A stretch of 64,000 nucleotides of DNA from Woeseiaceae bacterium. Its GTDB lineage: Bacteria; Pseudomonadota; Gammaproteobacteria; Steroidobacterales; Woeseiaceae. The notes under the pieces are model-generated. The model searched no databases. It was given only the letters and a program-made list of their open reading frames with translations, and was not told the DNA's origin. Position 1 is the first letter of the stretch, and every line of letters starts with the position of its first letter. The translations under genes and the position numbers were made by a program. This document shows positions 27,708-40,812 of this stretch, piece after piece. The stretch spans positions 18,288 through 82,287 of the forward strand of contig JAHEFD010000001.1 in NCBI GenBank assembly GCA_024640345.1, in the 5' to 3' direction.

Positions 27708-28724
27708 TTACTTCCTGGCTGCCTCGTAACCGGCCTCCAGGTAAAGCTGGGCTGCTTCCATTGTGCAGGGTGCCTGGATGATTTCGCGATCGGCCAGTTT
27801 GCGCCAGTGGTGCGAGAACGTAACCGGTTCGGCAAGGTACACGGGATCCGTTACCGTAATTTCGGCCGCGAGATGCAGGCCACCATCCGACATCGTGAAT
27901 CTTTCCACCAGGTGCTTCTGCTCGCTTGAGCTGATGCCGGTGTGGATACCCCACTCATCTGCGATGAAATTGGTGGTCTCGACGACCAGCGTGTCACCCT
28001 CAAACCACCCGACAGAATGGCCCATCTTGGATGGTGCTCCGACTTCGTGATCGCGATCGAAGTGCACAACCCGAAGTTCTTCCATTAACTCGCGTTCCAT
28101 CACGAGCGTGTTGGCATCGGGCCTGGTAAAAACGACCGGGTAGGGAATGAGCATCGATTTCGGTGGGCCGGGATTACCGCAAGTCACCATCGGATTCTGG
28201 TCTTCGCTGAAGTTGTCGACCTGCGCCTGTCCAAGTTTTGACAAGGGCCAGCCAACCGGCGGCTTGTAGTGTGGCTTGAAACCGCCGGGATCGTCGCGCT
28301 TCCAAAGACCCGTGAAATCTGTAGAGGGCGTTATCTCTGCTGCGACATCCGTGGACGCACCAACGCGCGTGCCGTCGCCGGTTTCAGCCCATTGAAGGCC
28401 CGTGTAGTGTCGGTCCGAATCTTTATCGTGGGCGCCGTACCAGATAATTCTGTCGCCCGGTTTCCAGCTTGTCTTGCTCCAGCCCTTGGCAGCCATCGCC
28501 GGTGGATGTTCCATCTCGATCGTGTATTCGACTATCCGTCCCTTGTCGTCCGGCCCTTTAACCTTCAGGTAAACATGGGGCATGGTCCAGCCGTACTTGA
28601 CCACGACACCTTTGTAGGTGCGGACGTCGTCCATATTGAGCGAGGCATGAGAGTGATGAGCAAACCCGGCAACAGGAACAGCAAGCCAGGCGAACAGAGC
28701 GAGCAGATGTATACGCTTGATCAT
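27708..28724 (-). CDS. Secreted two-domain protein: N-terminal HHS (DUF6152-like) domain plus C-terminal WxGDTLVVET domain
   Basis: ATG at 28724. Signal peptide MIKRIHLLALFAWLAVPVAGFA is followed by HHSHAS, then WTMPH. The C-terminal half is similar to ORF 61773..62591. Confidence 0.7.
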   Translation of the reverse strand: MIKRIHLLALFAWLAVPVAGFAHHSHASLNMDDVRTYKGVVVKYGWTMPHVYLKVKGPDDKGRIVEYTIEMEHPPAMAAKGWSKTSWKPGDRIIWYGAHDKDSDRHYTGLQWAETGDGTRVGASTDVAAEITPSTDFTGLWKRDDPGGFKPHYKPPVGWPLSKLGQAQVDNFSEDQNPMVTCGNPGPPKSMLIPYPVVFTRPDANTLVMERELMEELRVVHFDRDHEVGAPSKMGHSVGWFEGDTLVVETTNFIADEWGIHTGISSSEQKHLVERFTMSDGGLHLAAEITVTDPVYLAEPVTFSHHWRKLADREIIQAPCTMEAAQLYLEAGYEAARK

Positions 28725-28728
28725 AGTC

Positions 28729-29952
28729 TTAGTTCCCCATACCAGGCAGTGCCCGATTATCCTCGGCGAGGCAATTCGCCTCCCTGACGTCGCCATGCAG
28801 CATGCGATCGCGGAACTTCGTGTGCCGCCATTCCCCGATCCAGTGCTCGGGGTCAGTCATGATGAAATCCATCTTCAACGTGTTGCCGTCATTGATCATC
28901 GAAATACGTTCAGTAATCTTGAGCTGGTTGCCCGTAAAGATGCCCTGCTGGATCAGGTGGTTCTCGTCTGTAAAACCCTCCGTTTCAACCACCAGTGTGT
29001 CGCCTTCCCAGTGGCCCAGTGACTCACCGTTCCAGTTGGGATCGCGCAGATTCGCCGGTTGACGCTCACGGCCATCGAGAAAAATCACGCGATACTCGTT
29101 GTTGAGCCTGGAGACCATGAAGATTGCTGTCGGGTACTGCAGCATCATCATGGATCCGAATCGTGTCATAAGTCTCGGCATGCCGGCCGGATAACAGAAA
29201 GCCGTTGGCTCGGCGTAGCGCTCTCCTTTGGTCGCATAACTGAGGTATTCGTCGTAGATCCGCTTTCCTTTCTCCGTGAATTCCGGGTGAGGTTTGAATT
29301 CGTAGCGACCATAATGCGGCTGCTCCGAGTCTTCACCCCGAAACGCCCAGGTGCCGGTAAGATCAAACGGTGGTTTTGGCCTGGGCTTGGCCAGGTTCTC
29401 GGCATCAAGGGCGCCGAGTACCGGATTCGCAGCCTTCGAGGGAATCGGCAGCTGCGGCGGCCGTGTTCGCGCTTCGCGCTTTTGCCATGTGTCACCAGCC
29501 GGTGGTGGAACATAGGGCGTCAGCGACGGGATTTGTTGCGGTACCTCTTCCGCTACGGTCGGGGTTTCCGCATATTCCATGCCGAACGTTTTGCCATTTG
29601 CGAGTGTCATTCCCTGCAATAGCCCGCCGGGTTTTCCCGACTTCAGTGGATTAATCAGAACCGTGATCTTGTCGCCTACGGACAGGGAATCGCGCGTAAA
29701 TCCATTCGTGACCATTTCTGTCGGGCTGCCACCCTCAATCAGCCACGGCTCCGACTTGCCATCTTTCTCGACGTCAATGGTGATGCTCAGGTGAGGGTTT
29801 CTCCAGACAAACTTCGCGACTGTACCGGATACAGTCGTCGTTTCGCTTCTGTCGAAAGCAACCGCAGAGTGGTGAGCCGGGGCGATCCGCGGCCAACTGA
29901 GGACCGACATCACGAGGATTGTTAGGAGCTTATTTTGGGCTGACAGGTGCAT
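28729..29952 (-). CDS. Secreted two-domain protein, paralog of 27708..28724
   Basis: ATG at 29952 (GTG alternative at 29982). Signal ...VLSWPRIAPA is followed by HHSAVAF, then WRNPH. C-terminal HWEGDTLVVETEGF. Confidence 0.7.
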   Translation of the reverse strand: MHLSAQNKLLTILVMSVLSWPRIAPAHHSAVAFDRSETTTVSGTVAKFVWRNPHLSITIDVEKDGKSEPWLIEGGSPTEMVTNGFTRDSLSVGDKITVLINPLKSGKPGGLLQGMTLANGKTFGMEYAETPTVAEEVPQQIPSLTPYVPPPAGDTWQKREARTRPPQLPIPSKAANPVLGALDAENLAKPRPKPPFDLTGTWAFRGEDSEQPHYGRYEFKPHPEFTEKGKRIYDEYLSYATKGERYAEPTAFCYPAGMPRLMTRFGSMMMLQYPTAIFMVSRLNNEYRVIFLDGRERQPANLRDPNWNGESLGHWEGDTLVVETEGFTDENHLIQQGIFTGNQLKITERISMINDGNTLKMDFIMTDPEHWIGEWRHTKFRDRMLHGDVREANCLAEDNRALPGMGN

Positions 29953-30163
29953 TTTCTCTTTCCCGCAAGGTTTTTGATACACGACAATGGATCGAGTATG
30001 TCACACAGATGCGCGACTTTCCGACGGTCCGTGCGTCGCTGTTGCACATTACAAAACACGCCGTTTTGACCGCATGCCCGGTATTTCGGTTCCTGCCCGT
30101 ATTGACGTGGATTGGCCAAAATAGGCTATCCTCGGCTCATCGATACCTAACCTGGTCATTTCA

Positions 30164-31393
30164 GTGAAAACCAATCGAAGACGTTTCCTTGCCGGATTAA
30201 GTGCGGTGGCACCGCTTGGCAGCATTATGTCGCAGAGCAGTATGGCAGCCGATGCGAGGGCAGCTGTAACACCCGACTATTTTGCCGACCTGGGGGTAAA
30301 GCCGTTTATCAATGCCATCGGCCCCTATTCATCGCTGGGCGGTAACGAAATGTGGCCGGAAGTCATCGAAGCGATGGATTACGCTATTCGAAACAAGGCA
30401 AAGATGACCGATCTTCATGATGCGGTCGGACTGCGTATCGCCGAACTGACCGGCGCGGATGCCGCTATGGTTTCCTCGGGCGCAACCGGCGCGATCATCC
30501 TGGGCACGGCAGCCTGTATGACAAAGGGCGACGAGGAAAAGATCGAACGCATTCCGGACACGTCGGGCATGCCCAACGAAGTGCTTATCCTGAAAAGTCA
30601 GCGTTACATGTACGACCGCTCGATAAAGGCACCCGGCGCGCTGCTCGTGGAAGTCGAAACTGAGGATGATATCCGCGATGCCATCAGCGACAAAACAGCA
30701 ATGATGTTCTACCTGCTGAATCGACCGGACGACCTCAAAATCGATGTCGACGATTACATCGCGCTGGGGAAGGAGTATGACATCCCGATCTTCTGCGATG
30801 CAGCGACCACGGTGCCGCCGGTCAGCGGCATCAGGTCGACCGTAGAAAAAGGTTTCGACCTCGTCTGCTATTCAGGCGGCAAAGGATTGCGAGGGCCATA
30901 CAGTGCGGGACTGTTACTCGGCAGGAAGGATCTTGTGCGATTCGCGCGCATGAATGGCTCACCGAATCATCGTGCCTATGGCAGGAGTATGAAAGTCGCA
31001 CCTGAGGAATACCTTGGCATGATGGTCGCTGTCGAAACGAGCCTGAAATTCGATGAAGAGGTCGAGTACGACCGCCAGTTGAAATCAGTCAATGCGATGG
31101 GCCGGGAACTCGTAAGACTACCCGGCGTTACCGTAGAGACCGCGGTGCCAAATGCTGAGGCACGTGAACCCTATATTGAAGTGCAATGGGATAAGCGTAT
31201 CTACGATGTCAGTGTTGCCGACCTGAAGCAGGCGCTGCGGGATGGTGAACCATCAATCGAGGTCAGGGCGCTGTTCCTGTCAAACAATCAACTGCACCTG
31301 ACAGCTGTTGCCTTAAAGAGTGGCGAGGCCGAAATCGTAACCAGGCGGGTCACGGAAATACTGAATTCCCGCCGTACCGGGGTGGAGGCGTAA
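30164..31393 (+). CDS. Tat-signal SelA-like (fold-type I) PLP-dependent enzyme
   Basis: GTG start. Twin-arginine motif NRRRFLAGLSAVAPLG...AADA. PLP-lysine region CYSGGKGLRGPYSAGLLLG resembles SGDKLLGGPQAG of the SelA/DgaE family. Confidence 0.7.
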   Translation: MKTNRRRFLAGLSAVAPLGSIMSQSSMAADARAAVTPDYFADLGVKPFINAIGPYSSLGGNEMWPEVIEAMDYAIRNKAKMTDLHDAVGLRIAELTGADAAMVSSGATGAIILGTAACMTKGDEEKIERIPDTSGMPNEVLILKSQRYMYDRSIKAPGALLVEVETEDDIRDAISDKTAMMFYLLNRPDDLKIDVDDYIALGKEYDIPIFCDAATTVPPVSGIRSTVEKGFDLVCYSGGKGLRGPYSAGLLLGRKDLVRFARMNGSPNHRAYGRSMKVAPEEYLGMMVAVETSLKFDEEVEYDRQLKSVNAMGRELVRLPGVTVETAVPNAEAREPYIEVQWDKRIYDVSVADLKQALRDGEPSIEVRALFLSNNQLHLTAVALKSGEAEIVTRRVTEILNSRRTGVEA

Positions 31394-32599
31394 ATGGCCA
31401 GGAGACGCACGGTTTTAAAATCCATTGCCGGGGCATTCTCGTTGCCCATGCTGGGTACAGCCGGTGCTGCGGCGACAATGAAGCCGGCGGCACGTGACTA
31501 TTTTCGTGAGCTTGGACTGACGCGCTTCATCAACGCGGCCGGCGCCTATTCTGCCTACGGAGGCGCAAGAATGCGCCCCGAAGTGGTCGAGGCCATGCGC
31601 TACGCCGCAAACAACAAAGTGAAGATGAAAGAGCTCCATGATGCAGTCGGTGAGCGCATTGCCGAACTTGTCGGGGCAGACGCGGCCATGGTGACGTCCG
31701 GAGCAACGGCATCGATCGTGCTCGGAACCGCGGCATGCATGACACTTGGAGACGAAGACCAGATGCGGCAGTTGCCTGACACGACGGGCATGAAGAATGA
31801 AATTATCATTCAGAAGAAGCACAGGTACACCTATGACCGGTCGCTGACGGTTGCCGGAGCGAAGCTTGTCGAAGTCGAGAATGAAAGCGATGTTCGTCGA
31901 AAGGTTTCTGACAGGACGGCGATGATGTTTTTCCTTCAACCGACGCAGGATGGCGATAACATTCCTGCGGCCAGTTACATCGAGCTCGCGCAGGAACTCG
32001 GCGTGCCTTCGTTTTGCGATGCTGCAACAACGACTCCGCCGGCCCGGAATGTCGTTGATGGTGTTAGCACCGGGTTCGACCTGATCTGTTATTCGGGCGG
32101 CAAGGGATTGCGCGGTCCGTACAGTGCCGGTTTGCTCCTTGGCAGGAAAGACCTGATCGGGTACGCACGTCGTCACTCCGCGCCGAACGATATATCGATC
32201 GGTCGTGGCATGAAGGTGTCCGCAGAGGAGTATCTCGGCATGCTTGTCGCCCTGGAGGCGGGACTGCGTGTTTCCGAGGCTGATGATTTTGCTTACAAGA
32301 ACGAACGCTTCCGCAGGATCATCGCAGAACTGGATGACGTGCCAGGAGTCCGCACGAAAGTGTTTGTATCAGAGGGGCACGCGAAGGAGCTCTATCTCGA
32401 TATCGATTGGGATACCGACATCATCGCCATGAGTCCACAGGATCTCGTCGAGGAATTACGTAACCACGATCCCTCTGTCGAAGTTCGGCTTTTTATTTTC
32501 TCCGGTGGCAGGATTCAGCTTTCAGCGACGGTCATGGATGAAGGCGAGGATGAACTCGTCGGACAGATTATTCGCGGGATATTGTTGTCGCATGCCTGA
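31394..32599 (+). CDS. Tat-signal SelA-like PLP-dependent enzyme, tandem paralog
   Basis: ATG directly after the upstream TAA. MARRRTVLKSIAG... twin-Arg motif. Same CYSGGKGLRGPYSAGLLLGRKDL motif and collinear similarity to 30164..31393. Confidence 0.7.
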   Translation: MARRRTVLKSIAGAFSLPMLGTAGAAATMKPAARDYFRELGLTRFINAAGAYSAYGGARMRPEVVEAMRYAANNKVKMKELHDAVGERIAELVGADAAMVTSGATASIVLGTAACMTLGDEDQMRQLPDTTGMKNEIIIQKKHRYTYDRSLTVAGAKLVEVENESDVRRKVSDRTAMMFFLQPTQDGDNIPAASYIELAQELGVPSFCDAATTTPPARNVVDGVSTGFDLICYSGGKGLRGPYSAGLLLGRKDLIGYARRHSAPNDISIGRGMKVSAEEYLGMLVALEAGLRVSEADDFAYKNERFRRIIAELDDVPGVRTKVFVSEGHAKELYLDIDWDTDIIAMSPQDLVEELRNHDPSVEVRLFIFSGGRIQLSATVMDEGEDELVGQIIRGILLSHA

Positions 32600-33680
32600 A
32601 GTGGAAGGCAAGGCAGCAACAAACGGCGACAGGATGCTGGCAGAGATCGTACTGCCGGGACGACCGCTAAAGGAGACGCTGGCGTTCTTTACGGAAGAAC
32701 TCGGCTTCCGGGTTGATTCAATCTATCCCGCAGACTCGCCCCGGGTGGCCGTGGTCTCAGCGCACGGCGTTCGTCTTCGCCTCGACACCGATGCCCAAAC
32801 CGACCCCGGCGTAGTCCGAATGGCTCGTGGCGATATGGTTGGCGGGGAGTATGTGGTTGCCCCGAATGGTACGAAAATAGACTTTTTTCCGGCAGAGCAA
32901 CCGCTCACGATACCGATTCCCCGCCCGTCCCTCGCTATTCTGAATCCGGGCGCTGGTGCCGGCTTCGGAGAGGGCCGCGCCGGGATGCAGTACCGCGACC
33001 TTATTCACGATCGTTTCGGCGGCAGTTTCATTGCATCGCACATACGTATAAAGGACGGTGGGCCGGTCGCCGATTATGTGCACCATCATCACATCCGTTT
33101 CCAGATGATATTCTGCGTGCGCGGCTGGGTGAGCGTGGTGTACGAAGACCAGGGACCACCGATCCTGCTTGAAGCGGGTGATTGCTTCCTCCAGCCGCCA
33201 CACATTCGACATCGCGTACTGGAGTCGTCAGACAACATGGAGGTTGTCGAGATTGCCTGCCCGGCTGAACATGAAACCTGCGTCGATCATGAAATGGAAC
33301 TGCCGACAGGCTCGGTGAATCCTGATCGCGATTTCGGTGGGCAGAAATTTGTATTTCACGATGCGAGTGAATCACCCTGGCTCTCATGGCACGTCCCCGG
33401 ATTCGAATACCAGGACACGGGTATCGATGAGGCGACAAACGGTATCGCTTCCGCAATTGTCATCAGGGCGAGCGGTGAGATAGCAACGTTACCGTTAGGT
33501 CATGATGCGGAGCTTCGATTTCTGTTTGTCCTTCAGGGCAAAGCGTCTTTCGTGCATAAGAAGCATGTTGACGCTCTCGGGCAGAACAGCTCATGTGCGA
33601 TCCCTGGCGATCTTGCCTGCGAGCTCACCGACATCTCGGCGGACTTCAGAATGCTTGAAGTATTTGTTTCCAGCCGATAA
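32592..33680 (+). CDS. Cupin-domain protein (VOC-like N-terminus plus two cupin-like modules)
   Basis: ATG at 32592 overlaps the upstream gene by 8 nt. HHHHIRFQMIFCVRGW...PPHIRHRV cupin-like His pattern. No signal peptide. Confidence 0.6.
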   Translation: MPEVEGKAATNGDRMLAEIVLPGRPLKETLAFFTEELGFRVDSIYPADSPRVAVVSAHGVRLRLDTDAQTDPGVVRMARGDMVGGEYVVAPNGTKIDFFPAEQPLTIPIPRPSLAILNPGAGAGFGEGRAGMQYRDLIHDRFGGSFIASHIRIKDGGPVADYVHHHHIRFQMIFCVRGWVSVVYEDQGPPILLEAGDCFLQPPHIRHRVLESSDNMEVVEIACPAEHETCVDHEMELPTGSVNPDRDFGGQKFVFHDASESPWLSWHVPGFEYQDTGIDEATNGIASAIVIRASGEIATLPLGHDAELRFLFVLQGKASFVHKKHVDALGQNSSCAIPGDLACELTDISADFRMLEVFVSSR

Positions 33681-35040
33681 CCAGGTCTATCAATACAATG
33701 ATAAGGGCCGTCGGTGCGAGATAGCGGTTCGTGATGCGCCAGTACGTCTTCCACCCGGCCGTGTCACCGCTGAATTCCTCGTCGATGACAATCTTGCGCA
33801 CAACCCAGCCCGCGAACAGTGCGATCAGGAGCGCATTGACCGGTGCCAGAACGTTGGCCACCGTGAAGTCGGCAATTCCAAAAAAGTTCTTGTCAACTCC
33901 GATGAAGGCGAGGGGTCGAAAATCTGCCAGGAAGCTGAATGAGAATACCGAGCCAAGCCCGAATACCCAGACAGCAGCGCCTGCGACCATCGCCATCTGC
34001 CGGCGTTTGCCGGGCCTTCGCTCTTCGAGCCAGGCGACAACCGGTTCGAGCATGCCAAGCGCCGACGTGTAGGCGGCGAACAGCAGCAAGATGAAGAAAA
34101 GGGTGCCAATGATATGCCCGCCGGGCATATTGCCGAAGGCAATCGGCAGCGTGACAAAAATCAGTCCGGGCCCTTCCGCGGGATCGAGCCCGCTCGCAAA
34201 TACGATCGGAAAGATGGCGAAGCCCGCGAGTATTGCGGCCAGCGTATCGCCGATGCAGACCACGGTTACCGATGTTCGAAGCGAGTAATCCCTTGGCATG
34301 TAGGACGCATAGGTAATCATCAGTCCGACGCCGATACCCAGCGAGAAAAGCGCCTGGCCCAATGCGACCAGGAAGGATTCGCCGGTGAGGGCGCTGAAAT
34401 CCGTGCTGAACAGGAATCTCGCGGCGGCGCCGAAGTCTGCACTGATCAGCCCATAAATGACGATCACGATAATCACGCCGAACAGTGCCGGCATCAGGAT
34501 CTTTGAAGCCTGCTCGATTCCCTTGTTGATTCCACGCGCAACAACCCACACGGTTGCCGCGACAAACAAGCCATGCAGCATCGCCTGGTAGGCTGGCCGG
34601 TCTATGCGGGTACCGAATGTACTCTGCGAGCTTGCCGCATCAAAGCCGCTGAACCCATTGCTTGCAGCGAGTCCCAGGTAGTCTATTGCCCAGGCAGCGA
34701 CTACGGCGTAATAACTGAGACCAATGAACGGTACGAGAAGGCTAAGCCATCCGATCGAGCGCCAGAACCCGTTGGCGTTCTCAGAACGAACGAGCGCAGC
34801 AATCGCGTTGACAGGACTGCGGTGTCCGCGGCGGCCGAGCATCATTTCACCGGCCATCAGCGGTACGCCGAGCAAAAATACAAATCCCAGGTAGATGATC
34901 ACGAAACCACCGCCGCCGTATTCGCCGGCGATATAAGGAAAACGCCAGAGATTTCCCAGCCCGACAGCGCCTCCGATGGCTGCTAACAGGAATGCCGGGC
35001 GACTCGACCAGGAATTGGTAGTTTCGTTCGCTATTGCCAT
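33646..35040 (-). CDS. Sodium-dependent transporter, NSS/SNF family
   Basis: GLGNLWRFPYIAGEYGGG signature, about 12 TM segments. Confidence 0.9.
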   Translation of the reverse strand: MAIANETTNSWSSRPAFLLAAIGGAVGLGNLWRFPYIAGEYGGGGFVIIYLGFVFLLGVPLMAGEMMLGRRGHRSPVNAIAALVRSENANGFWRSIGWLSLLVPFIGLSYYAVVAAWAIDYLGLAASNGFSGFDAASSQSTFGTRIDRPAYQAMLHGLFVAATVWVVARGINKGIEQASKILMPALFGVIIVIVIYGLISADFGAAARFLFSTDFSALTGESFLVALGQALFSLGIGVGLMITYASYMPRDYSLRTSVTVVCIGDTLAAILAGFAIFPIVFASGLDPAEGPGLIFVTLPIAFGNMPGGHIIGTLFFILLLFAAYTSALGMLEPVVAWLEERRPGKRRQMAMVAGAAVWVFGLGSVFSFSFLADFRPLAFIGVDKNFFGIADFTVANVLAPVNALLIALFAGWVVRKIVIDEEFSGDTAGWKTYWRITNRYLAPTALIIVLIDLVIGWKQILQAF

Positions 35041-35231
35041 CGGTCACTCCTCTGCTGCTGTATCGAATTTCAGTTTCGTCGTGACCGCACGGGTCGCAAA
35101 TGCCGGTACGCCAGGCGAATCCATGGCGATACCTTTCGTCAGGTTCATATAGTCTGGTCTTGCTCCGGACAAGTGTAGCCCCAGCAGATAGAATTAGTCA
35201 CTCTCTTAAAGTCGTGCCGTATGAGGAAGCA

Positions 35232-36833
35232 ATGAAAAGCAGGATAGTTACGCCAGGCATCGTGGTGCTTCTTATGCAGCTTACCGCCTGTGCGCCTCCA
35301 GCGGGCGAAACAGCTTCCGTGACGGTCGATACGCTTATTACCGGCGGCCTTGTCTACGATGGTTCGGGAGAATCACCTGGTTTGCTCGATATTGGTATCA
35401 GCGAAGGAAGGATTTCGTTCATCGGCGACGCAGTGGCGGCGGACATATCGTCGCCGGACGTTATCGATGCGAAGGGACTTTGGGTAACGCCGGGGTTCAT
35501 CGATGCACACAGTCATGCCGAGCTGGATGAGGACTACGGCAAGGATGCCCTGCCGTATCTCTACCAGGGAATCACGACCGTTGTGCTCGGCCTGGATGGT
35601 GATGGCACGAGTGACATTGGTGATCGACTGGCGTCCTGGGAAAAGAACGGCATTGGCGTAAATGGAATCGCCTTCGTCGGCCACGGCTTCATGCGCAGCG
35701 CGGTGATTGGTAGAGAAGATCGTGACGCTACGCCCGATGAACTTGAAGAAATGCGCGGGCACGTCAGGAAGGCGATGGAAGAGGGTGCGTTCGGGCTATC
35801 AACGGGTCTCTTTTATGTACCCGGGACCTATGCATCAACCGACGAAGTCATTGCACTGGCACAGGAAGCTGCCAAATTTTCAAATGCGATCTACGACACC
35901 CATGACAGGGACCTTGGAGCGGTCTACGAGGGAGTCGGCTACGACGCCTCGGTCGAGGAAGGGATCAGGATAACCGAGGAGTCCGGACTGCGCGGAATTT
36001 TCAGCCACTACAATCTCCAGGGTGCGCACAACTACGGGCGTGCCGATGTCGGTGCACGACTCCTGAATGATGCCCGCGATCGCGGAGTGGATATCTGGGC
36101 GGCACAACATCCGTATACTGCGACTCAAAGCAATCTGCGTTCTTACACAATTCCGGATTGGGCCTCAGCAGGCAGCCGCGAGGAAATGATCGCTCGATTC
36201 GACAATCCGGAAACGGCTGCGGAAATCATCGCTGCGACCAATGCAATGCTCGAGATACGTGGTGGAGCCGACAAGATTCTGTTCGCAGATCCTCGCCCGG
36301 ATCTGAACGGAAAGACGCTGGCGGATGTTGCAGCCGAGAGAGAGCTTTCGCCGGCCGAAACTGCGCAATGGATTCTTCGCGACAGCAACGCCGTCGTAAT
36401 GAACCTCGAGCTCTACGATCATAACAATACGCGGCTCCTGGCAAAGGAACCGTGGATGATGACCTGCACCGATGGCCGTACCCCGCGGCCAGATCAACCG
36501 ATAACACACCCTCGAACGTTTGGTGCATTTCCGAAAAAGATGCGTCATTTCGTTTTCGAAGAAAAGCTCCTGGCGCCTGAATTCGTGATTCGAAGTTTTT
36601 CCGGACTCGCTGCCGATTTTTACCGGCTTCCGGATCGTGGCTATCTTCGCGAAGGCTATGCGGCCGATATCGTGGTGCTGGACCCGGAAACGTACCGGGA
36701 CAAAGCGACGTTCGGAGAGCCGCAACAATATGCCACCGGCATCGAACAGTTATTCGTCAACGGGCAATCAGCTATCCGCGACGGAAAGTCGACAGGCGCG
36801 CTGGCCGGCGTGCCGATCAGGAGGCCGCGGTAA
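35232..36833 (+). CDS. N-acyl-D-amino-acid deacylase (D-aminoacylase) family amidohydrolase, lipoprotein-like
   Basis: ATG after AGGAAG. LMQLTACAPP. GGLVYDGSG...IDAKGLWVTPGFIDAHSHAE pattern. Confidence 0.75.
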   Translation: MKSRIVTPGIVVLLMQLTACAPPAGETASVTVDTLITGGLVYDGSGESPGLLDIGISEGRISFIGDAVAADISSPDVIDAKGLWVTPGFIDAHSHAELDEDYGKDALPYLYQGITTVVLGLDGDGTSDIGDRLASWEKNGIGVNGIAFVGHGFMRSAVIGREDRDATPDELEEMRGHVRKAMEEGAFGLSTGLFYVPGTYASTDEVIALAQEAAKFSNAIYDTHDRDLGAVYEGVGYDASVEEGIRITEESGLRGIFSHYNLQGAHNYGRADVGARLLNDARDRGVDIWAAQHPYTATQSNLRSYTIPDWASAGSREEMIARFDNPETAAEIIAATNAMLEIRGGADKILFADPRPDLNGKTLADVAAERELSPAETAQWILRDSNAVVMNLELYDHNNTRLLAKEPWMMTCTDGRTPRPDQPITHPRTFGAFPKKMRHFVFEEKLLAPEFVIRSFSGLAADFYRLPDRGYLREGYAADIVVLDPETYRDKATFGEPQQYATGIEQLFVNGQSAIRDGKSTGALAGVPIRRPR

Positions 36834-36847
36834 CAGTAATGGGCGTC

Positions 36848-37930
36848 TCAGTCAGTTCTTAGTACTTCGCTCTGTTGCTGCAGCAGCTGCGCGGGCGCTA
36901 TGACATGGTGCTCGAGAAGATCATAGAGATTTCGGATATGCGCTCGACGCCCGTCGCCCGGCAGGCTGCTGGATGTCGTTACAACCACGAGTGACAGCTC
37001 CGGCACAAGCAGGATGAACTGGCCGCCATAGCCCCACGCGAAACTTGTACGCAAGCCGGCCATCTCGCGTACCCACCAGCCGTAACCATAGAAACGGCCC
37101 TTTTCGCGAGCCGACTCGGCCAGCGGCTGAAGCGACGTTTGTATCCAGGATTCCGGGATGATCTGTCGTCCGTTGACCTGGCCGTTGTTGATATAGAGTT
37201 CGCCAAACGCAAGCATCTGGCGTGGCGTCAATTCCATGTTGTTGCCGCCGAAGTAGACACCCTTCGGGTCCTGCGGCCACGCAGCCAGGTGAAATCCCAT
37301 CGGGCGACCAAGAACCTCGCGGGCAAATGTCAGCGTGGACTTGCCCGTCGCCTCGGTCAGAATTGCCGACAGCAGGTGTGTGTTGCCGGTGCTGTATTGC
37401 AGTTTCGTTCCAGGCGTCGATAGAAGAGGCTGCTCGAGTGCGTAGCCGATCCAGTCGTTACTTAAGACCCATGCGCCGTAATTATAAAAGCTCGTCGTTT
37501 CCAGTCCCGCCTGCATCGATAGCAGGTTACCGATCGTGATGTTGTTTTTCCGGGTATCAGTACGGGTTGGCAATAACTCGCCGTAAAAATCGGAAATGGG
37601 CTGGTCAAGTCCGGCCACATAGCCTTTGTCGATCGCAATTCCCACGAGGGCTGACATGATCGACTTCGAAACTGACTTTACGTTGGTAGTTCGGTCTGCG
37701 GTGGAGCCGTTGAAATATTTTTCGACAGTCAGCTCGCCCTTGTAGCTAATGAGCAAGCTCCGCAAGCGAGGCATTTGCTCCGCGGTTCGCAGCGCTTCGG
37801 TGAATAACTGATCGTCAATCGATACGCGGTCGTCAGCAGAAGTGTTTTCCGCTGCCAGCGTAGCCGCAAGTAAAAACCATATCACGCTGAAAGTGCGTGA
37901 ACGACTTGCCGTCGAGAGGGGGTTTTTCAT
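36848..37930 (-). CDS. Beta-lactamase-fold serine hydrolase (class C / D-aminopeptidase-like), secreted
   Basis: Signal peptide. SxxK motif VKSVSKS and downstream YSTGN. Confidence 0.8.
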   Translation of the reverse strand: MKNPLSTASRSRTFSVIWFLLAATLAAENTSADDRVSIDDQLFTEALRTAEQMPRLRSLLISYKGELTVEKYFNGSTADRTTNVKSVSKSIMSALVGIAIDKGYVAGLDQPISDFYGELLPTRTDTRKNNITIGNLLSMQAGLETTSFYNYGAWVLSNDWIGYALEQPLLSTPGTKLQYSTGNTHLLSAILTEATGKSTLTFAREVLGRPMGFHLAAWPQDPKGVYFGGNNMELTPRQMLAFGELYINNGQVNGRQIIPESWIQTSLQPLAESAREKGRFYGYGWWVREMAGLRTSFAWGYGGQFILLVPELSLVVVTTSSSLPGDGRRAHIRNLYDLLEHHVIAPAQLLQQQSEVLRTD

Positions 37931-39246: not shown

Positions 39247-40812
39247 TTATGGATTGCACGACGGGTGTTGGCGATCAATCACTTCGCCGGATAACGTACC
39301 GGTCAGTTTTCCGTCAGAAATCGCCGGCATACCGTTAACGATGAGGTAGGAAACGCCTGTTGCGAGCCTTGTCGGATTTTCGAAATCGGCGACCGGCTGG
39401 TACGTATCCAGGTCGATAATGGCAATGTCAGCCTTGCGACCCTCGGCCAGGTAGCCGCGGTCGCAAAGGTAAAAAGAATCTGCAACCAGGCCCGAGCTGC
39501 GATGGACGAATTTTTCCATCGACATGAGTGTGCTCTCGGCAACGAAGTCCCGATAGGCTTTCGGATAAGAGGCATACTTTCGCGGATGCCCCGTTGAGCC
39601 GTCCGAGCCGGTCATTACCCAGTCCTGGATCGCAATGGCATTAATGTCGGGCGGATCCATGTTGAACGAGGCAATAGAGGGGTCGCCTGCCCGAACGACC
39701 TCGACTGCTGCATCGACCGGCTCCATGTCCAGGTGTTCGGCAATTTCTCCGAGCGTCATGCCGCGCCACTCGCTTTCCCCCGTGACCAGCAAGGAGTCTT
39801 TTCCGCCCCGGCGAAAAAGATTGTCTTCCATTTCCTTCTGAATCTGGTCTTTGAGGTCAGGATTGTCCAGGCGCCCGAACATCGCTTCCTCGGAATCGGC
39901 CCTGACCCATCCGGGTATAAGCGCGCTGGCGAACCGCGTGCCCGAGGCCTGCCAGGGATACTGGTCTGCCGTGACCTCGACGCCCCTTTCCCGCGCCATT
40001 TCGACTAACGCGATGATGTCACCGCTTTGTCCCCAGACGTCGCGGCCAAGGGCTTTCAGATGCGCGGCGTGCACGGGAATTTCCGCTTCTTCGCCGATCT
40101 GTATGAGTTCCTTGATGGAGCCCAGTACCCCAATGTTGTAGGAGCTTTCGTCGCGCAGGTGAGAGTCATAGACGCCGCCGAACCGGGCGGCGACTTTCGC
40201 CAGCGCAACGACCTCTGCGGTGCTGGCAAAACTGCCCGGTGTATAAAAAAGTCCTGTCGACAAACCGAGCGCCCCGGCCCGCATTTCGTCCTCGACAAGT
40301 GCCTGCATCTGGCGCATTTCCTCATCGGACGGAGCCCGATTTTCCTCTCCCATCACTGATCTACGAACCTGGTTGTGGCCCGCGAAAAAACCGGCATTGG
40401 TTCCGATTCCCTGCTCGTACATTTTCCGGACATTGGCCGGGCGATCAGGAATTCCATCCCCGTCATTGCCGATAAATACGGTGGTAACACCCTGCGCCAG
40501 GTAGTTGGCATTCTCGTTATGGTCGGGGTCCAGCAGATCCTCGCGAGCGTGTGTATGCGGGTCGATAAACCCGGGCACGACGACGAGACCACGGGCCTGG
40601 ATAACCAGGTCGGCTTGCGCGTCCTCGGCAGCATTCATCGATACGATGCGGTCCCCCGTAACGCCGATATTGACCTGGCGCGCGGGAGATCCGGAGCCGT
40701 CGTACACCGTGCCGTTGACGATCAGAATATCAAATCGAGTTTCCTCATCAGCGGCTCCGCAGGCGGCGAGAAAGGAAGCCGCCAAAAACATGGGTACCAT
40801 TGTCCGGATCAT
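39247..40812 (-). CDS. N-acyl-D-amino-acid deacylase family amidohydrolase, lipoprotein-like
   Basis: FLAACGA. NGTVYDGSG...VVPGFIDPHTHA. Paralog of 35232..36833. Confidence 0.75.
   Translation of the reverse strand: MIRTMVPMFLAASFLAACGAADEETRFDILIVNGTVYDGSGSPARQVNIGVTGDRIVSMNAAEDAQADLVIQARGLVVVPGFIDPHTHAREDLLDPDHNENANYLAQGVTTVFIGNDGDGIPDRPANVRKMYEQGIGTNAGFFAGHNQVRRSVMGEENRAPSDEEMRQMQALVEDEMRAGALGLSTGLFYTPGSFASTAEVVALAKVAARFGGVYDSHLRDESSYNIGVLGSIKELIQIGEEAEIPVHAAHLKALGRDVWGQSGDIIALVEMARERGVEVTADQYPWQASGTRFASALIPGWVRADSEEAMFGRLDNPDLKDQIQKEMEDNLFRRGGKDSLLVTGESEWRGMTLGEIAEHLDMEPVDAAVEVVRAGDPSIASFNMDPPDINAIAIQDWVMTGSDGSTGHPRKYASYPKAYRDFVAESTLMSMEKFVHRSSGLVADSFYLCDRGYLAEGRKADIAIIDLDTYQPVADFENPTRLATGVSYLIVNGMPAISDGKLTGTLSGEVIDRQHPSCNP

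Follow-up and report, generated by a model that had tools for sequence, protein, structure and literature searches.

PLP enzymology is, to our knowledge, almost always treated as cytoplasmic, and the only well-studied PLP enzymes that leave the cytoplasm through the Tat system are the two pyoverdine-tailoring enzymes PvdN and PtaA. PvdN is class V-like and PtaA is an aminotransferase of the class I/II type, which places them in PLP families other than that of the proteins described here. Both are fold-type-I enzymes of fluorescent pseudomonads that bind PLP in the cytoplasm and are exported by Tat in the folded state (PMC6206403, PMC13673990). Tat export of PLP enzymes is thus already known. 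The best match to the present proteins by sequence and by structure is Cap15, a cytoplasmic, signal-less, O2- and PLP-dependent monooxygenase-decarboxylase of capuramycin biosynthesis encoded in a Streptomyces antibiotic gene cluster, followed by DgaE, an equally signal-less cytoplasmic enzyme linked to a PTS operon that performs an elimination on a D-configured beta-hydroxy alpha-amino acid. According to its structure paper DgaE is reportedly a homo-octamer. These two characterised relatives have in common that they use beta-hydroxy alpha-amino acids (PMC9529869, PMC7497351). A functional rather than a structural parallel is the cytoplasmic OngB/OngC route (GlcNAc1A to GlcN1A to KDG and NH3), in which a deacylase of the D-aminoacylase family is paired with a PLP-dependent deaminase for D-amino acids and amino-aldonates; OngC has fold-type III and is unrelated to the proteins of this study. 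Together the two enzymes convert GlcNAc1A to KDG and ammonia, and the deaminase also accepts D-Ser and D-Thr (PMC9537276).

The tandem genes and their PLP-enzyme family

The window, the whole stretch of 64,000 nucleotides from a Woeseiaceae bacterium that was analysed, contains two adjacent paralogous genes, here called A and B (Table 1). The stop codon of A (TAA, 31391-31393) directly abuts the ATG of B. Inspection of the sequence before the GTG start of A revealed no obvious Shine-Dalgarno site; the A orthologues have the same start position (M/V-K-T-N-R-R). The N-termini read MKTNRRRFLAGLSAVAPLGSIMSQSSMAADA for A and MARRRTVLKSIAGAFSLPMLGTAGAAAT for B, and A and B show 50% identity across 395 residues (E 5e-137), including a stretch of 23 identical residues, CYSGGKGLRGPYSAGLLLGRKDL. 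No riboswitch around the pair was matched in Rfam, and promoter and terminator consensus sites around A-B were no commoner than in shuffled sequence. A 710-aa protein (P0002) was considered as a natural A-B fusion and rejected as a frameshift artefact, since the reading leaves the frame beyond residue 370 and then re-enters B, which has its own signal.

Table 1. Positions of the tandem genes, their predicted functional sites and neighbouring genes in the window
Feature	Position	Strand	Remarks
Gene A	30164..31393	+	409 aa, GTG start; DgaE/Cap15/SelA-like fold-type-I PLP enzyme with N-terminal putative Tat signal
Putative Tat signal of A	30164..30262	+	About residues 1-28 to 1-33; T-N-R-R-R-F-L-A, uncharged h-region; read from sequence
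Codon of Lys240 of A (S-G-G-K)	30881..30883	+	Predicted PLP Schiff-base lysine; aligns with K213 of DgaE (7lc0) and K230 of Cap15
Shine-Dalgarno GGAGG for gene B	31384..31388	+	Within the last codons of A, 5 nt upstream of the ATG; from sequence
Gene B	31394..32599	+	401 aa, ATG start; paralogue of A with its own putative Tat signal
Putative Tat signal of B	31394..31474	+	About residues 1-27; R-R-R-T-V-L-K, candidate cleavage site AAA/T
Codon of Lys237 of B (S-G-G-K)	32102..32104	+	Predicted PLP Schiff-base lysine; from PDB alignment and family alignment
Cupin-domain protein, no signal	32505..33680	+	3' of B in a subset of related loci
Sodium-coupled transporter, SNF/NSS family	33646..35040	-	Convergent with cupin gene; adjacency kept in related loci
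Amidohydrolase, D-aminoacylase/OngB family	35100..36833	+	Lipoprotein-type signal (MKSRIVTPGIVVLLMQLTAC within ORF)
Secreted serine hydrolase, beta-lactamase fold	36848..37930	-	
Second lipoprotein, Amidohydro_3/PRK09061 kind	39247..40812	-	Resembles the 35100-36833 gene by profile match
Two secreted DUF6152 proteins	27708..29982	-	Divergent from gene A; adjacent to A-B in some Woeseiaceae-like loci only

Both proteins align with the full length of the DgaE family model TIGR01437 (E 1e-45 for A and 1e-49 for B), and with 156 and 169 bits both remain below its curated cut-off of 385. The same holds for the DgaE equivalog NF047797 (140.6 and 141 bits, cut-off 600), and the scores with the SelA model TIGR00474 are far below the cut-off of 267.9 (28.8 bits for A, 25.4 for B). 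The Pfam SelA model PF03841, by which the initial annotation had proposed to confirm the family, recognises A with 26.8 bits, above the cut-off of 22.8, and just misses B with 22.3. With other PLP families, such as Cys_Met_Meta_PP and methionine gamma-lyase, A and B gave no more than weak matches below threshold, and the families of PvdN and PtaA were not among them. The best PDB sequence matches were 8t7j (E 1e-34, 28% identity), identified as Cap15 from its Foldseek description, and then DgaE (7lc0; E 4e-29, 24% identity). An AlphaFold2 model of B (mean pLDDT 83.8, pTM 0.78), with low confidence or disorder limited to residues 1-31, retrieved Cap15, DgaE and then SelA as the top Foldseek matches with a probability of 1.00 and TM values of 0.6-0.86 (0.85, target-normalised, for Cap15; 0.79-0.86 for DgaE, which has the same fold). 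Homology to SelA, the selenocysteine synthase, is distant and confined to the PLP domain (E ~5e-4, ~17-18% identity); the lysine motif is similar, but A and B lack the N-terminal tRNA-binding domain and SelA structures can be aligned over the PLP core alone. A tRNA-dependent reaction of the SelA type in the periplasm is implausible.

The predicted Schiff-base lysine (Lys240 of A) is found in each of the 120 rows that make up the two groups counted in the family alignment. Together with the aspartate that pairs with the pyridine nitrogen (D212 in A, D209 in B) it is kept in 98-100% of the family alignment, R274/R271 and K277/K274 belong to the same (near-)invariant set, and both paralogues retain all of these residues. 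In common with DgaE, A and B have the S-G-x-K lysine, the PLP-binding Asp and an equivalent of the carboxylate-binding Arg226 (R254 in A, R251 in B). In the 6-phosphate cluster of DgaE (Arg301, Arg332 and Arg346), however, only the Arg332 equivalent is retained (R368/R365); A and B have Tyr in place of R301, and Thr or Ser in place of R346. The strictly conserved His162-His163 loop of DgaE, which provides the proton donor, is also missing, its place being taken by N186-R187-P188 in A and P183-T184-Q185 in B (PMC9529869); the clade consensus at this position is N-R-P for A and P-T-x for B. The scores far below the curated cut-offs, the absent His-His loop and the replacement of two of the three phosphate arginines all indicate that A and B are not orthologues of SelA or DgaE. 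At the superfamily level their assignment as SelA/DgaE/Cap15-like fold-type-I PLP enzymes is confirmed by the sequence comparisons, and the full-length TIGR01437 alignment and the matches to 8t7j and 7lc0 bear out the earlier description of SelA/DgaE-like enzymes with a common lysine motif.

Twin-arginine signals and the RR-bearing branch

That both reading frames start with Tat-like motifs had been noticed before, and the N-termini are as then written. They fit an S/T-R-R-x-F-L-K-type motif followed by an uncharged h-region and a small-x-small c-region (candidate cleavage sites in A: SMA/A and ADA/R), with the consensus (T/S)-(N/S)-R-R-x-F-L-A in A and x-R-R-(T/S)-(I/F)-L-K in B. About 90% of 240 orthologues retain the RR motif (108 of 120 for A, 106 of 120 for B), also in distant lineages and other phyla, and one variable and two hydrophobic residues follow it in 107 of the 108 RR-bearing A orthologues. 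Most orthologues without it are shorter, their starts falling within or beyond the signal region; one, P0186, has full length and no RR motif. In about 50 loci all six arginine codons are in use at both RR positions, with switching between CGN and AGR from locus to locus. This diversity indicates selection at the protein level and translation of the region, and it disposes of a true start downstream of the motif, the objection that the initial annotation had raised against itself. A lipobox-like L-x-G-C follows the h-region in 17 of 106 B orthologues, and the N-terminal extension of 30-36 residues is absent from signal-less relatives. TatC (PF00902) is encoded in the genome (223.7 bits, contig C177). 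A simple motif filter found 63 RR N-termini in this genome, of which on reading a minority resemble real Tat signals; the same filter returned four further aminotransferase-fold proteins. The earlier remark that exported PLP enzymes are uncommon holds as to their rarity, yet they have precedents in PvdN and PtaA (PMC6206403, PMC13673990) and possible company in these four proteins. Against the export reading stand the lack of a match to the short Pfam model TAT_signal (PF10518, 21 positions), which scored two other RR proteins of the genome and gave no score on the N-termini of A and B, the absence of either N-terminus from the TIGR01409 (NCBIfam) matches at E <= 0.01, and the GTG start of gene A with no clear Shine-Dalgarno site. 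On balance, the signals make it very probable that A and B are exported.

A tree was calculated from mature-domain columns only, the signal columns being left out. RR signals occur in 49 of the 128 nearest cluster representatives (~40%), behind which stand thousands of metagenomic sequences, and all 49 fall inside one set of 62 rows with a support of 96. DgaE, Cap15 and the signal-less forms are found in the other half of 67 rows, where no RR signals occur. Within the RR-bearing branch, A and B are sister clades (support 100), and a Bryobacteraceae clade contains members encoded as single genes. The RR-bearing proteins thus form one large branch of the SelA/DgaE/Cap15 family that is apparently exported, with members from marine Woeseiaceae, soil Acidobacteria, Planctomycetota and other groups. 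The view that members of this family are cytoplasmic applies to the characterised members only; RR signals are present in ~40% of the nearest representatives.

Pairing of A and B and their gene neighbourhood

A is followed by B in every locus whose contig continues, in Woeseiaceae, Marinacidobacterales and Emcibacteraceae/Kordiimonadaceae alike, and among the loci inspected no A without B was seen. At 23 positions A and B have each fixed a different residue, and one of these lies in the loop that in DgaE bears the catalytic His162-His163. The duplicated pair pointed out in the initial annotation is thus a conserved unit, which fits either a heteromer or two linked reactions. We consider a heteromer of A and B probable, and with slightly less assurance we favour the view that A and B are a two-gene operon for the paralogous subunits of a periplasmic PLP enzyme.

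Neighbouring genes were clustered over 36 loci, and five further places were labelled with Pfam; in this set no universally conserved neighbour was found beyond A-B. The block of cupin, SNF, VOC, D-aminoacylase and beta-lactamase genes is present in only a subset of loci, other lineages have sulfatase or carbohydrate-active neighbours beside the pair, and in one locus (L039) the cupin/SNF/D-aminoacylase block occurs without A-B. Operon partners were dropped as a guide to the substrate because of this variable context. In the window, the longest reading frame of the cupin gene overlaps the end of B, and its true start may be further downstream. The amidohydrolase at 35100-36833 matches D-aminoacylase (1m7j, E 7e-57) and PpOngB (E 5e-46) in the PDB. 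In this genome, five of seven paralogues of RidA, an enamine/imine deaminase, have signal peptides, a further hint to the substrate.

Proposed reaction and alternatives

We assume that each protein folds in the cytoplasm and binds PLP there at its S-G-G-K lysine, and that TatABC, directed by the twin-arginine signal of each, would carry the folded holo-protein across the inner membrane, by the same biogenesis route as PvdN and PtaA. The A-B heteromer would most likely be assembled before Tat transport; thereafter the signal would be cleaved, some B orthologues presumably being lipid-anchored instead. In the periplasm the A-B enzyme would act on an alpha-amino acid and require no diffusible co-substrate. 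The reaction that we would guess first is an alpha,beta-elimination as in DgaE, i.e. an ammonia-lyase (dehydratase) activity, on beta-hydroxy D-alpha-amino acids such as D-Ser and D-Thr or on non-phosphorylated 2-amino-2-deoxy-aldonates of the glucosaminate type. The loss of two of the three 6-phosphate arginines fits a non-phosphorylated amino acid, and the adjoining D-aminoacylase/OngB-family gene gives a hint to the substrate, since OngB partners a PLP deaminase (PMC9537276). In this genome the adjoining exported amidohydrolases of that family could release the substrates, and the products, a 2-oxo acid and ammonium, would be taken up through inner-membrane carriers. This assignment of reaction and substrate is tentative. 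The variable gene context speaks against it, with the D-aminoacylase, cupin and SNF neighbours, and hence the parallel to OngB/OngC, restricted to a subset of loci; so does Cap15, which is the nearest relative with a solved structure and works as an O2-dependent monooxygenase-decarboxylase rather than as a lyase.

It is very improbable that the RR stretches are non-functional or the starts mis-called, and that A and B are cytoplasmic orthologues of SelA or DgaE as in public annotations. The silent TAT_signal model would agree with this, but the RR motif shows protein-level conservation while all six arginine codons are in use, cytoplasmic relatives lack the extension, the RR-bearing proteins fall into one branch and some orthologues have lipobox variants. 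Orthology itself is contradicted by the scores (25-29 bits against 268 for TIGR00474, 141 against 600 for NF047797) and by what A and B lack: the N-terminal domain of SelA, the His-His motif of DgaE and the greater part of its phosphate-binding cluster. In classical Tat heteromers the signal is often present on one subunit only. As both A and B have a complete signal, two homomers might be exported independently, and A and B could be separate homo-oligomeric enzymes with different substrate or stereo-specificities that catalyse parallel or consecutive periplasmic steps. All family-invariant catalytic residues are present in both proteins, single-gene members exist in the exported branch, as in Bryobacteraceae, and the characterised relatives are homo-oligomeric, DgaE reportedly as an octamer. 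This arrangement is conceivable, but we consider it the less likely one, given that A was never observed without B, that the genes are coupled stop to start and that both clades are retained together across phyla. PvdN and PtaA, in contrast to this paralogous pair, are single genes tied to pyoverdine tailoring.

As to the chemistry, the relation to Cap15, the top match by sequence and structure, would also allow for an exported PLP-binding pair with O2-dependent, Cap15/PvdN-like chemistry, in which the pair, as an oxidase or oxidative decarboxylase, would turn an amino acid, or the amino-acid part of a larger molecule, into an amide, an aldehyde or a keto compound under the oxidising conditions of the periplasm. 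The Tat-exported PvdN performs the same type of decarboxylating oxygenation (PMC6206403, PMC7497351), and such a reaction requires O2 alone and, as with a lyase, no recycled co-substrate. We nevertheless regard it as unlikely: Cap15 shares only 28% identity with the pair, in the tree it groups with DgaE on the signal-less side, a long way from A and B, and no biosynthetic cluster (NRPS, nucleoside or siderophore genes) lies beside the pair in any inspected locus. More unlikely still is a periplasmic transaminase or racemase/epimerase that would, for example, turn D-amino acids into their L-forms, which the SNF transporter would then import. PtaA is a Tat-exported periplasmic transaminase (PMC6206403), an amino-acid-type Na+ symporter is encoded nearby and the reaction type changes easily among fold-type-I enzymes; however, neither activity is known among characterised members of the SelA/DgaE/Cap15 group, transamination requires a periplasmic keto-acid partner, and only some of the loci have the SNF neighbour. 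The reading of an exported A-B enzyme can be extended to an obligate heteromer that is the best-conserved representative of a large, wholly uncharacterised Tat-exported branch and deaminates or oxidatively decarboxylates D-amino acids and amino-sugar acids from necromass; in this full form we hold it to be doubtful.

In many bacteria of sediments and soils, PLP chemistry of this family probably proceeds outside the cytoplasm. The public labels of the RR-bearing branch (selenocysteine synthase, DgaE) are mistaken. If the branch is exported and active, this widespread annotation error would be corrected, A-B would be a tractable two-subunit model for the handling by Tat of cofactor-loaded hetero-oligomers with signals on both subunits, and the periplasm would be a new compartment for the catabolism of amino acids and amino-sugar acids in abundant sediment and soil bacteria. 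Should the proposed deamination be true, part of the ammonium release in sediments and soils would be periplasmic, alongside exported RidA proteins and aminotransferases.

Twin-arginine signals of the paralogues A and B

Genes A and B, which encode two paralogous PLP enzymes (coordinates are listed in the table), follow each other without spacing: the TAA stop of A directly abuts the ATG of B, and B possesses a GGAGG Shine-Dalgarno site within the final codons of A. No obvious Shine-Dalgarno site was found upstream of A by inspection of the sequence. The two proteins share 50% identity across 395 residues, with the stretch CYSGGKGLRGPYSAGLLLGRKDL being identical in both. The initial annotation had described the open reading frames, the N-termini and the common lysine stretch correctly in every detail, and its reading of twin-arginine signals on both proteins is supported by their homologues. 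A twin-arginine (RR) motif lies near the N-terminus in 108 of the 120 best A-type homologues, 107 of these having RR-x-hydrophobic-hydrophobic (commonest form M-K-T-N-R-R-H-F-L-A), and in 106 of 120 B-type homologues, mostly as a textbook R-R-(T/S)-(I/F)-L-K. Most homologues without RR are shorter, starting within or past the signal region, which suggests start mis-calls or contig truncation. The region after the motif is uncharged and moderately hydrophobic (mean Kyte-Doolittle about 1.4-1.5). This stretch leads into a small-x-small site, and the c-region often contains a basic residue. The conserved mature domain begins ~36 residues from the N-terminus, equivalent to position 2 of the family HMM; the signal segment is wholly missing in relatives without N-terminal extension. 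In 17 B orthologues a lipobox-like L-x-G-C is present after the h-region, which makes sense for an exported protein only.

The concern that the true starts might lie downstream of RR is answered by codon usage: across ~50 loci every one of the six Arg codons occurs at the two Arg positions, with switches between CGN and AGR, and the amino acids are fixed, which indicates that the signal segment is translated and under selection. TatC is encoded in the genome. A simple motif filter returned 63 RR N-termini in the genome, a minority of which resemble real Tat signals when read. Evidence against Tat signals is that neither N-terminus of A and B was reported by the short Pfam TAT_signal model or TIGR01409. 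The existence of a signal-bearing PLP pair is confirmed; A and B appear to carry Tat-type signals, and export itself is predicted.

Family membership and the predicted exported branch

The proposed SelA/DgaE-type family proved to be right. TIGR01437 (DgaE-family PLP ammonia-lyases) aligns end to end with both A and B (E 1e-45 and 1e-49) at 156-169 bits, far under its curated cut-off of 385, and the DgaE equivalog model NF047797 gives about E 5e-41 and 141 bits, far under its cut-off of 600. Pfam SelA, suggested initially as a check of the family, is marginal, with A above (26.8 bits) and B just below (22.3 bits) the cut-off of 22.8, and the true SelA model TIGR00474 reaches just 25-29 bits against a cut-off of 268. 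Among solved structures, Cap15 (8t7j, E 1e-34) is nearest by sequence, followed by DgaE (7lc0, E 4e-29); the match to SelA structures is limited to the PLP core (about E 5e-4). An AlphaFold2 model of B built from 95 homologues (pLDDT 83.8, pTM 0.78) is confident save for residues 1-31, and its best Foldseek matches are, in order, Cap15, DgaE and SelA. Residues invariant or nearly so throughout the family are kept in both paralogues, namely the S-G-G-K lysine (K240 in A/K237 in B), the PLP-binding Asp, R274/R271 and K277/K274, so that both look catalytically competent.

In DgaE, a His162-His163 loop is strictly conserved with His163 as proton donor, the Arg301/332/346 cluster binds the 6-phosphate of the substrate and Arg226 its carboxylate (PMC9529869). 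The His-His positions are N-R-P in A and P-T-Q in B, Tyr stands at the R301 position and Thr or Ser at that of R346, and of the four arginines R332 and R226 only have equivalents; the N-terminal tRNA-binding domain of SelA is absent. Judged by these residues and domains, A and B are neither DgaE nor SelA. Because the phosphate-site arginines are mostly replaced, the pair fits an amino acid substrate other than a sugar 6-phosphate, which would be sensible for the periplasm since PTS products do not occur there.

Searching 1.84 billion cluster representatives yielded 628 relatives at E <= 1e-30. The tree comprised 128 near-full-length sequences (~117 representatives among the matches listed, A and B, seven A/B-clade sequences of other loci, DgaE and Cap15), its alignment being trimmed back to the start of the mature domain. 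The 49 sequences bearing an RR extension all fell on one side, within a 62-row set (support 96); the other side held DgaE, Cap15, 62 sequences without extension and three with an RR-less extension. A handful of RR-less sequences in the exported half may have mis-called or truncated starts. The earlier description of the family as cytoplasmic is thus too strong. The exported branch contains a very large single-gene clade in Bryobacteraceae and Solibacter-type Acidobacteria. In public records the branch proteins are named selenocysteine synthase, L-seryl-tRNA selenium transferase, DgaE or hypothetical, and we found no sign of prior recognition of this branch.

Conservation and surroundings of the pair

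In the tree, A and B form sister clades (support 100), each with Woeseiaceae, Marinacidobacterales and Emcibacteraceae/Kordiimonadaceae versions. Wherever the contig continues (36 related loci; 121 same-family genomes), B directly follows A on the same strand, in agreement with the initial pairing; the spacing in related loci is a gap of up to ~45 nt or an overlap of a few bases. The pair is accessory (20/121 family genomes, 7/16 genera), and versions about 70% identical occur in other phyla, suggesting that both genes were transferred together. P0002, a 710-residue homologue from ENA metagenome data, resembles a natural A-B fusion; its frame is lost after residue 370, B's own MIVRRSFLK signal follows, and the apparent fusion is an artefact of frameshift or assembly.

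The active sites of this fold sit at the dimer interface. In the alignment, 23 positions have different fixed residues in A and B, for example the DgaE His-His loop (N186-R187 in A, P183-T184 in B), H269/D266, W64/R61 and Q146/H143. Two separate homomers are possible, as all catalytic residues are kept in both subunits and each has its own signal; however, the strict gene linkage, the coupling of translation signals and fixed differences that complement each other lead us to favour a predicted A-B heteromer with non-equivalent active sites.

Beyond A-B the neighbourhood is widely variable. In the window and a subset of related loci (L004, L014, L025, L041) the pair shares a block with genes for a cupin protein, an SNF-type Na+ symporter, a VOC-domain protein, exported amidohydrolases and a secreted beta-lactamase-fold hydrolase. 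One amidohydrolase (35100-36833) clearly belongs to the D-aminoacylase family (1m7j, E 7e-57; N-acyl-D-glutamate deacylase, E 2e-47; OngB, E 5e-46). The longest cupin ORF shares 95 nt with the 3' end of B, read in a different frame; in relatives, similarity by tblastn reaches into the overlap, which may merely reflect constraint from B, and the true cupin start may lie further downstream. At one locus (L039) the same block is present without the pair, which is therefore dispensable for it; just a weak match of 33%, covering the C-terminal third and seemingly a deletion remnant, lies between DUF6152 and cupin gene. An unnamed secreted/lipoprotein family, absent from the window, is the commonest recurring neighbour after the cupin gene; in Woeseiaceae it adjoins the SNF gene and carries a fused VOC/glyoxalase-like domain at its C-terminus, and in Emcibacteraceae and Kordiimonadaceae it stands directly upstream of A. 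Sulfatases, one of them with an N-sulfoglucosamine sulfohydrolase C-terminal domain, adjoin or lie near exported-branch members, a weak hint at a link to amino-sugar breakdown.

Coordinates of features in the window, on other contigs of the same genome (C) and at related loci on other contigs (L)
Feature	Position	Strand	Remarks	Basis
Gene A	30164-31393	+	409 aa, GTG start	ORF call
Gene B	31394-32599	+	401 aa, ATG start	ORF call
Shine-Dalgarno site of B	5 nt upstream of B			sequence
Cupin/B overlap	32505-32599
Amidohydrolase	35100-36833
RidA paralogues with signal	C24:20259-20582, C125:15841-16167, C72:20790-21125, C126:18093-18452, C156:44848-45123
RR aminotransferase-fold gene	C103:131957-133054	-		motif filter
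RR aminotransferase-fold gene	C161:4373-5524	+		motif filter
RR aminotransferase-fold gene	C185:12306-13451	-		motif filter
RR aminotransferase-fold gene	C22:998-2353	-		motif filter
Block without A-B	L039:6469-15458		uncultured Gammaproteobacteria contig CAWKOQ010000021.1; two DUF6152 genes, cupin, secreted protein, beta-lactamase-fold gene, amidohydrolase
Unnamed secreted/lipoprotein family (neighbour cluster 2)	L005:9710-10507, L014:13906-15114, L025:4609-5871, L026:7941-8930, others
Sulfatases (cluster 23)	L043:7181-8566; L026, L027, L030		Acidobacteria contig; Emcibacteraceae loci

Predicted chemistry and meaning for the family

OngB and the PLP deaminase OngC convert the oxidised chitin monomer GlcNAc1A via glucosaminate to KDG and ammonia, a pathway likened by its authors to the catabolism of D-amino acids; D-Ser and D-Thr are likewise deaminated by OngC (PMC9537276). 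With glucosaminate 6-phosphate as substrate, DgaE carries out the same elimination, and the substrate of Cap15 is likewise a beta-hydroxy alpha-amino acid (PMC7497351). Cap15 itself is an O2- and PLP-dependent monooxygenase-decarboxylase, and O2-dependent decarboxylating oxygenation of the Cap15/PvdN type is the main chemical rival for A and B. In an eliminating lyase PLP is regenerated each turnover and no co-substrate is required, which suits the periplasm. For this reason, and in view of the reactions of OngB/OngC and DgaE and of the Cap15 substrate, we tentatively favour, as a rather doubtful prediction, an ammonia-lyase that would act in the periplasm on beta-hydroxy D-amino acids or on non-phosphorylated amino-aldonates.

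In the genome, five of seven RidA (PF01042) paralogues begin with a signal peptide of Sec or lipoprotein type. RidA proteins quench enamines that such lyases release, and exported enamine/imine deaminases would be sensible if PLP lyases are active in the periplasm. The genome also encodes four proteins of class I/II aminotransferase fold (PF00155, E 2e-35 to 2e-47) with an N-terminal RR followed by hydrophobic stretches. Pfam TAT_signal scores on two of them, and the organism may possess an entire suite of periplasmic PLP enzymes like the Tat-exported PtaA. Both observations fit periplasmic PLP chemistry in a circumstantial manner.

Experiments have demonstrated Tat export of PLP holo-enzymes in the case of PvdN and PtaA (PMC6206403, PMC13673990); the principle itself is thus not new, and the rarity initially ascribed to exported PLP enzymes was overstated. 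New are the SelA/DgaE/Cap15-like family as a source of predicted exported PLP enzymes, the size and breadth of this branch, and a conserved two-paralogue module with signals on both subunits.
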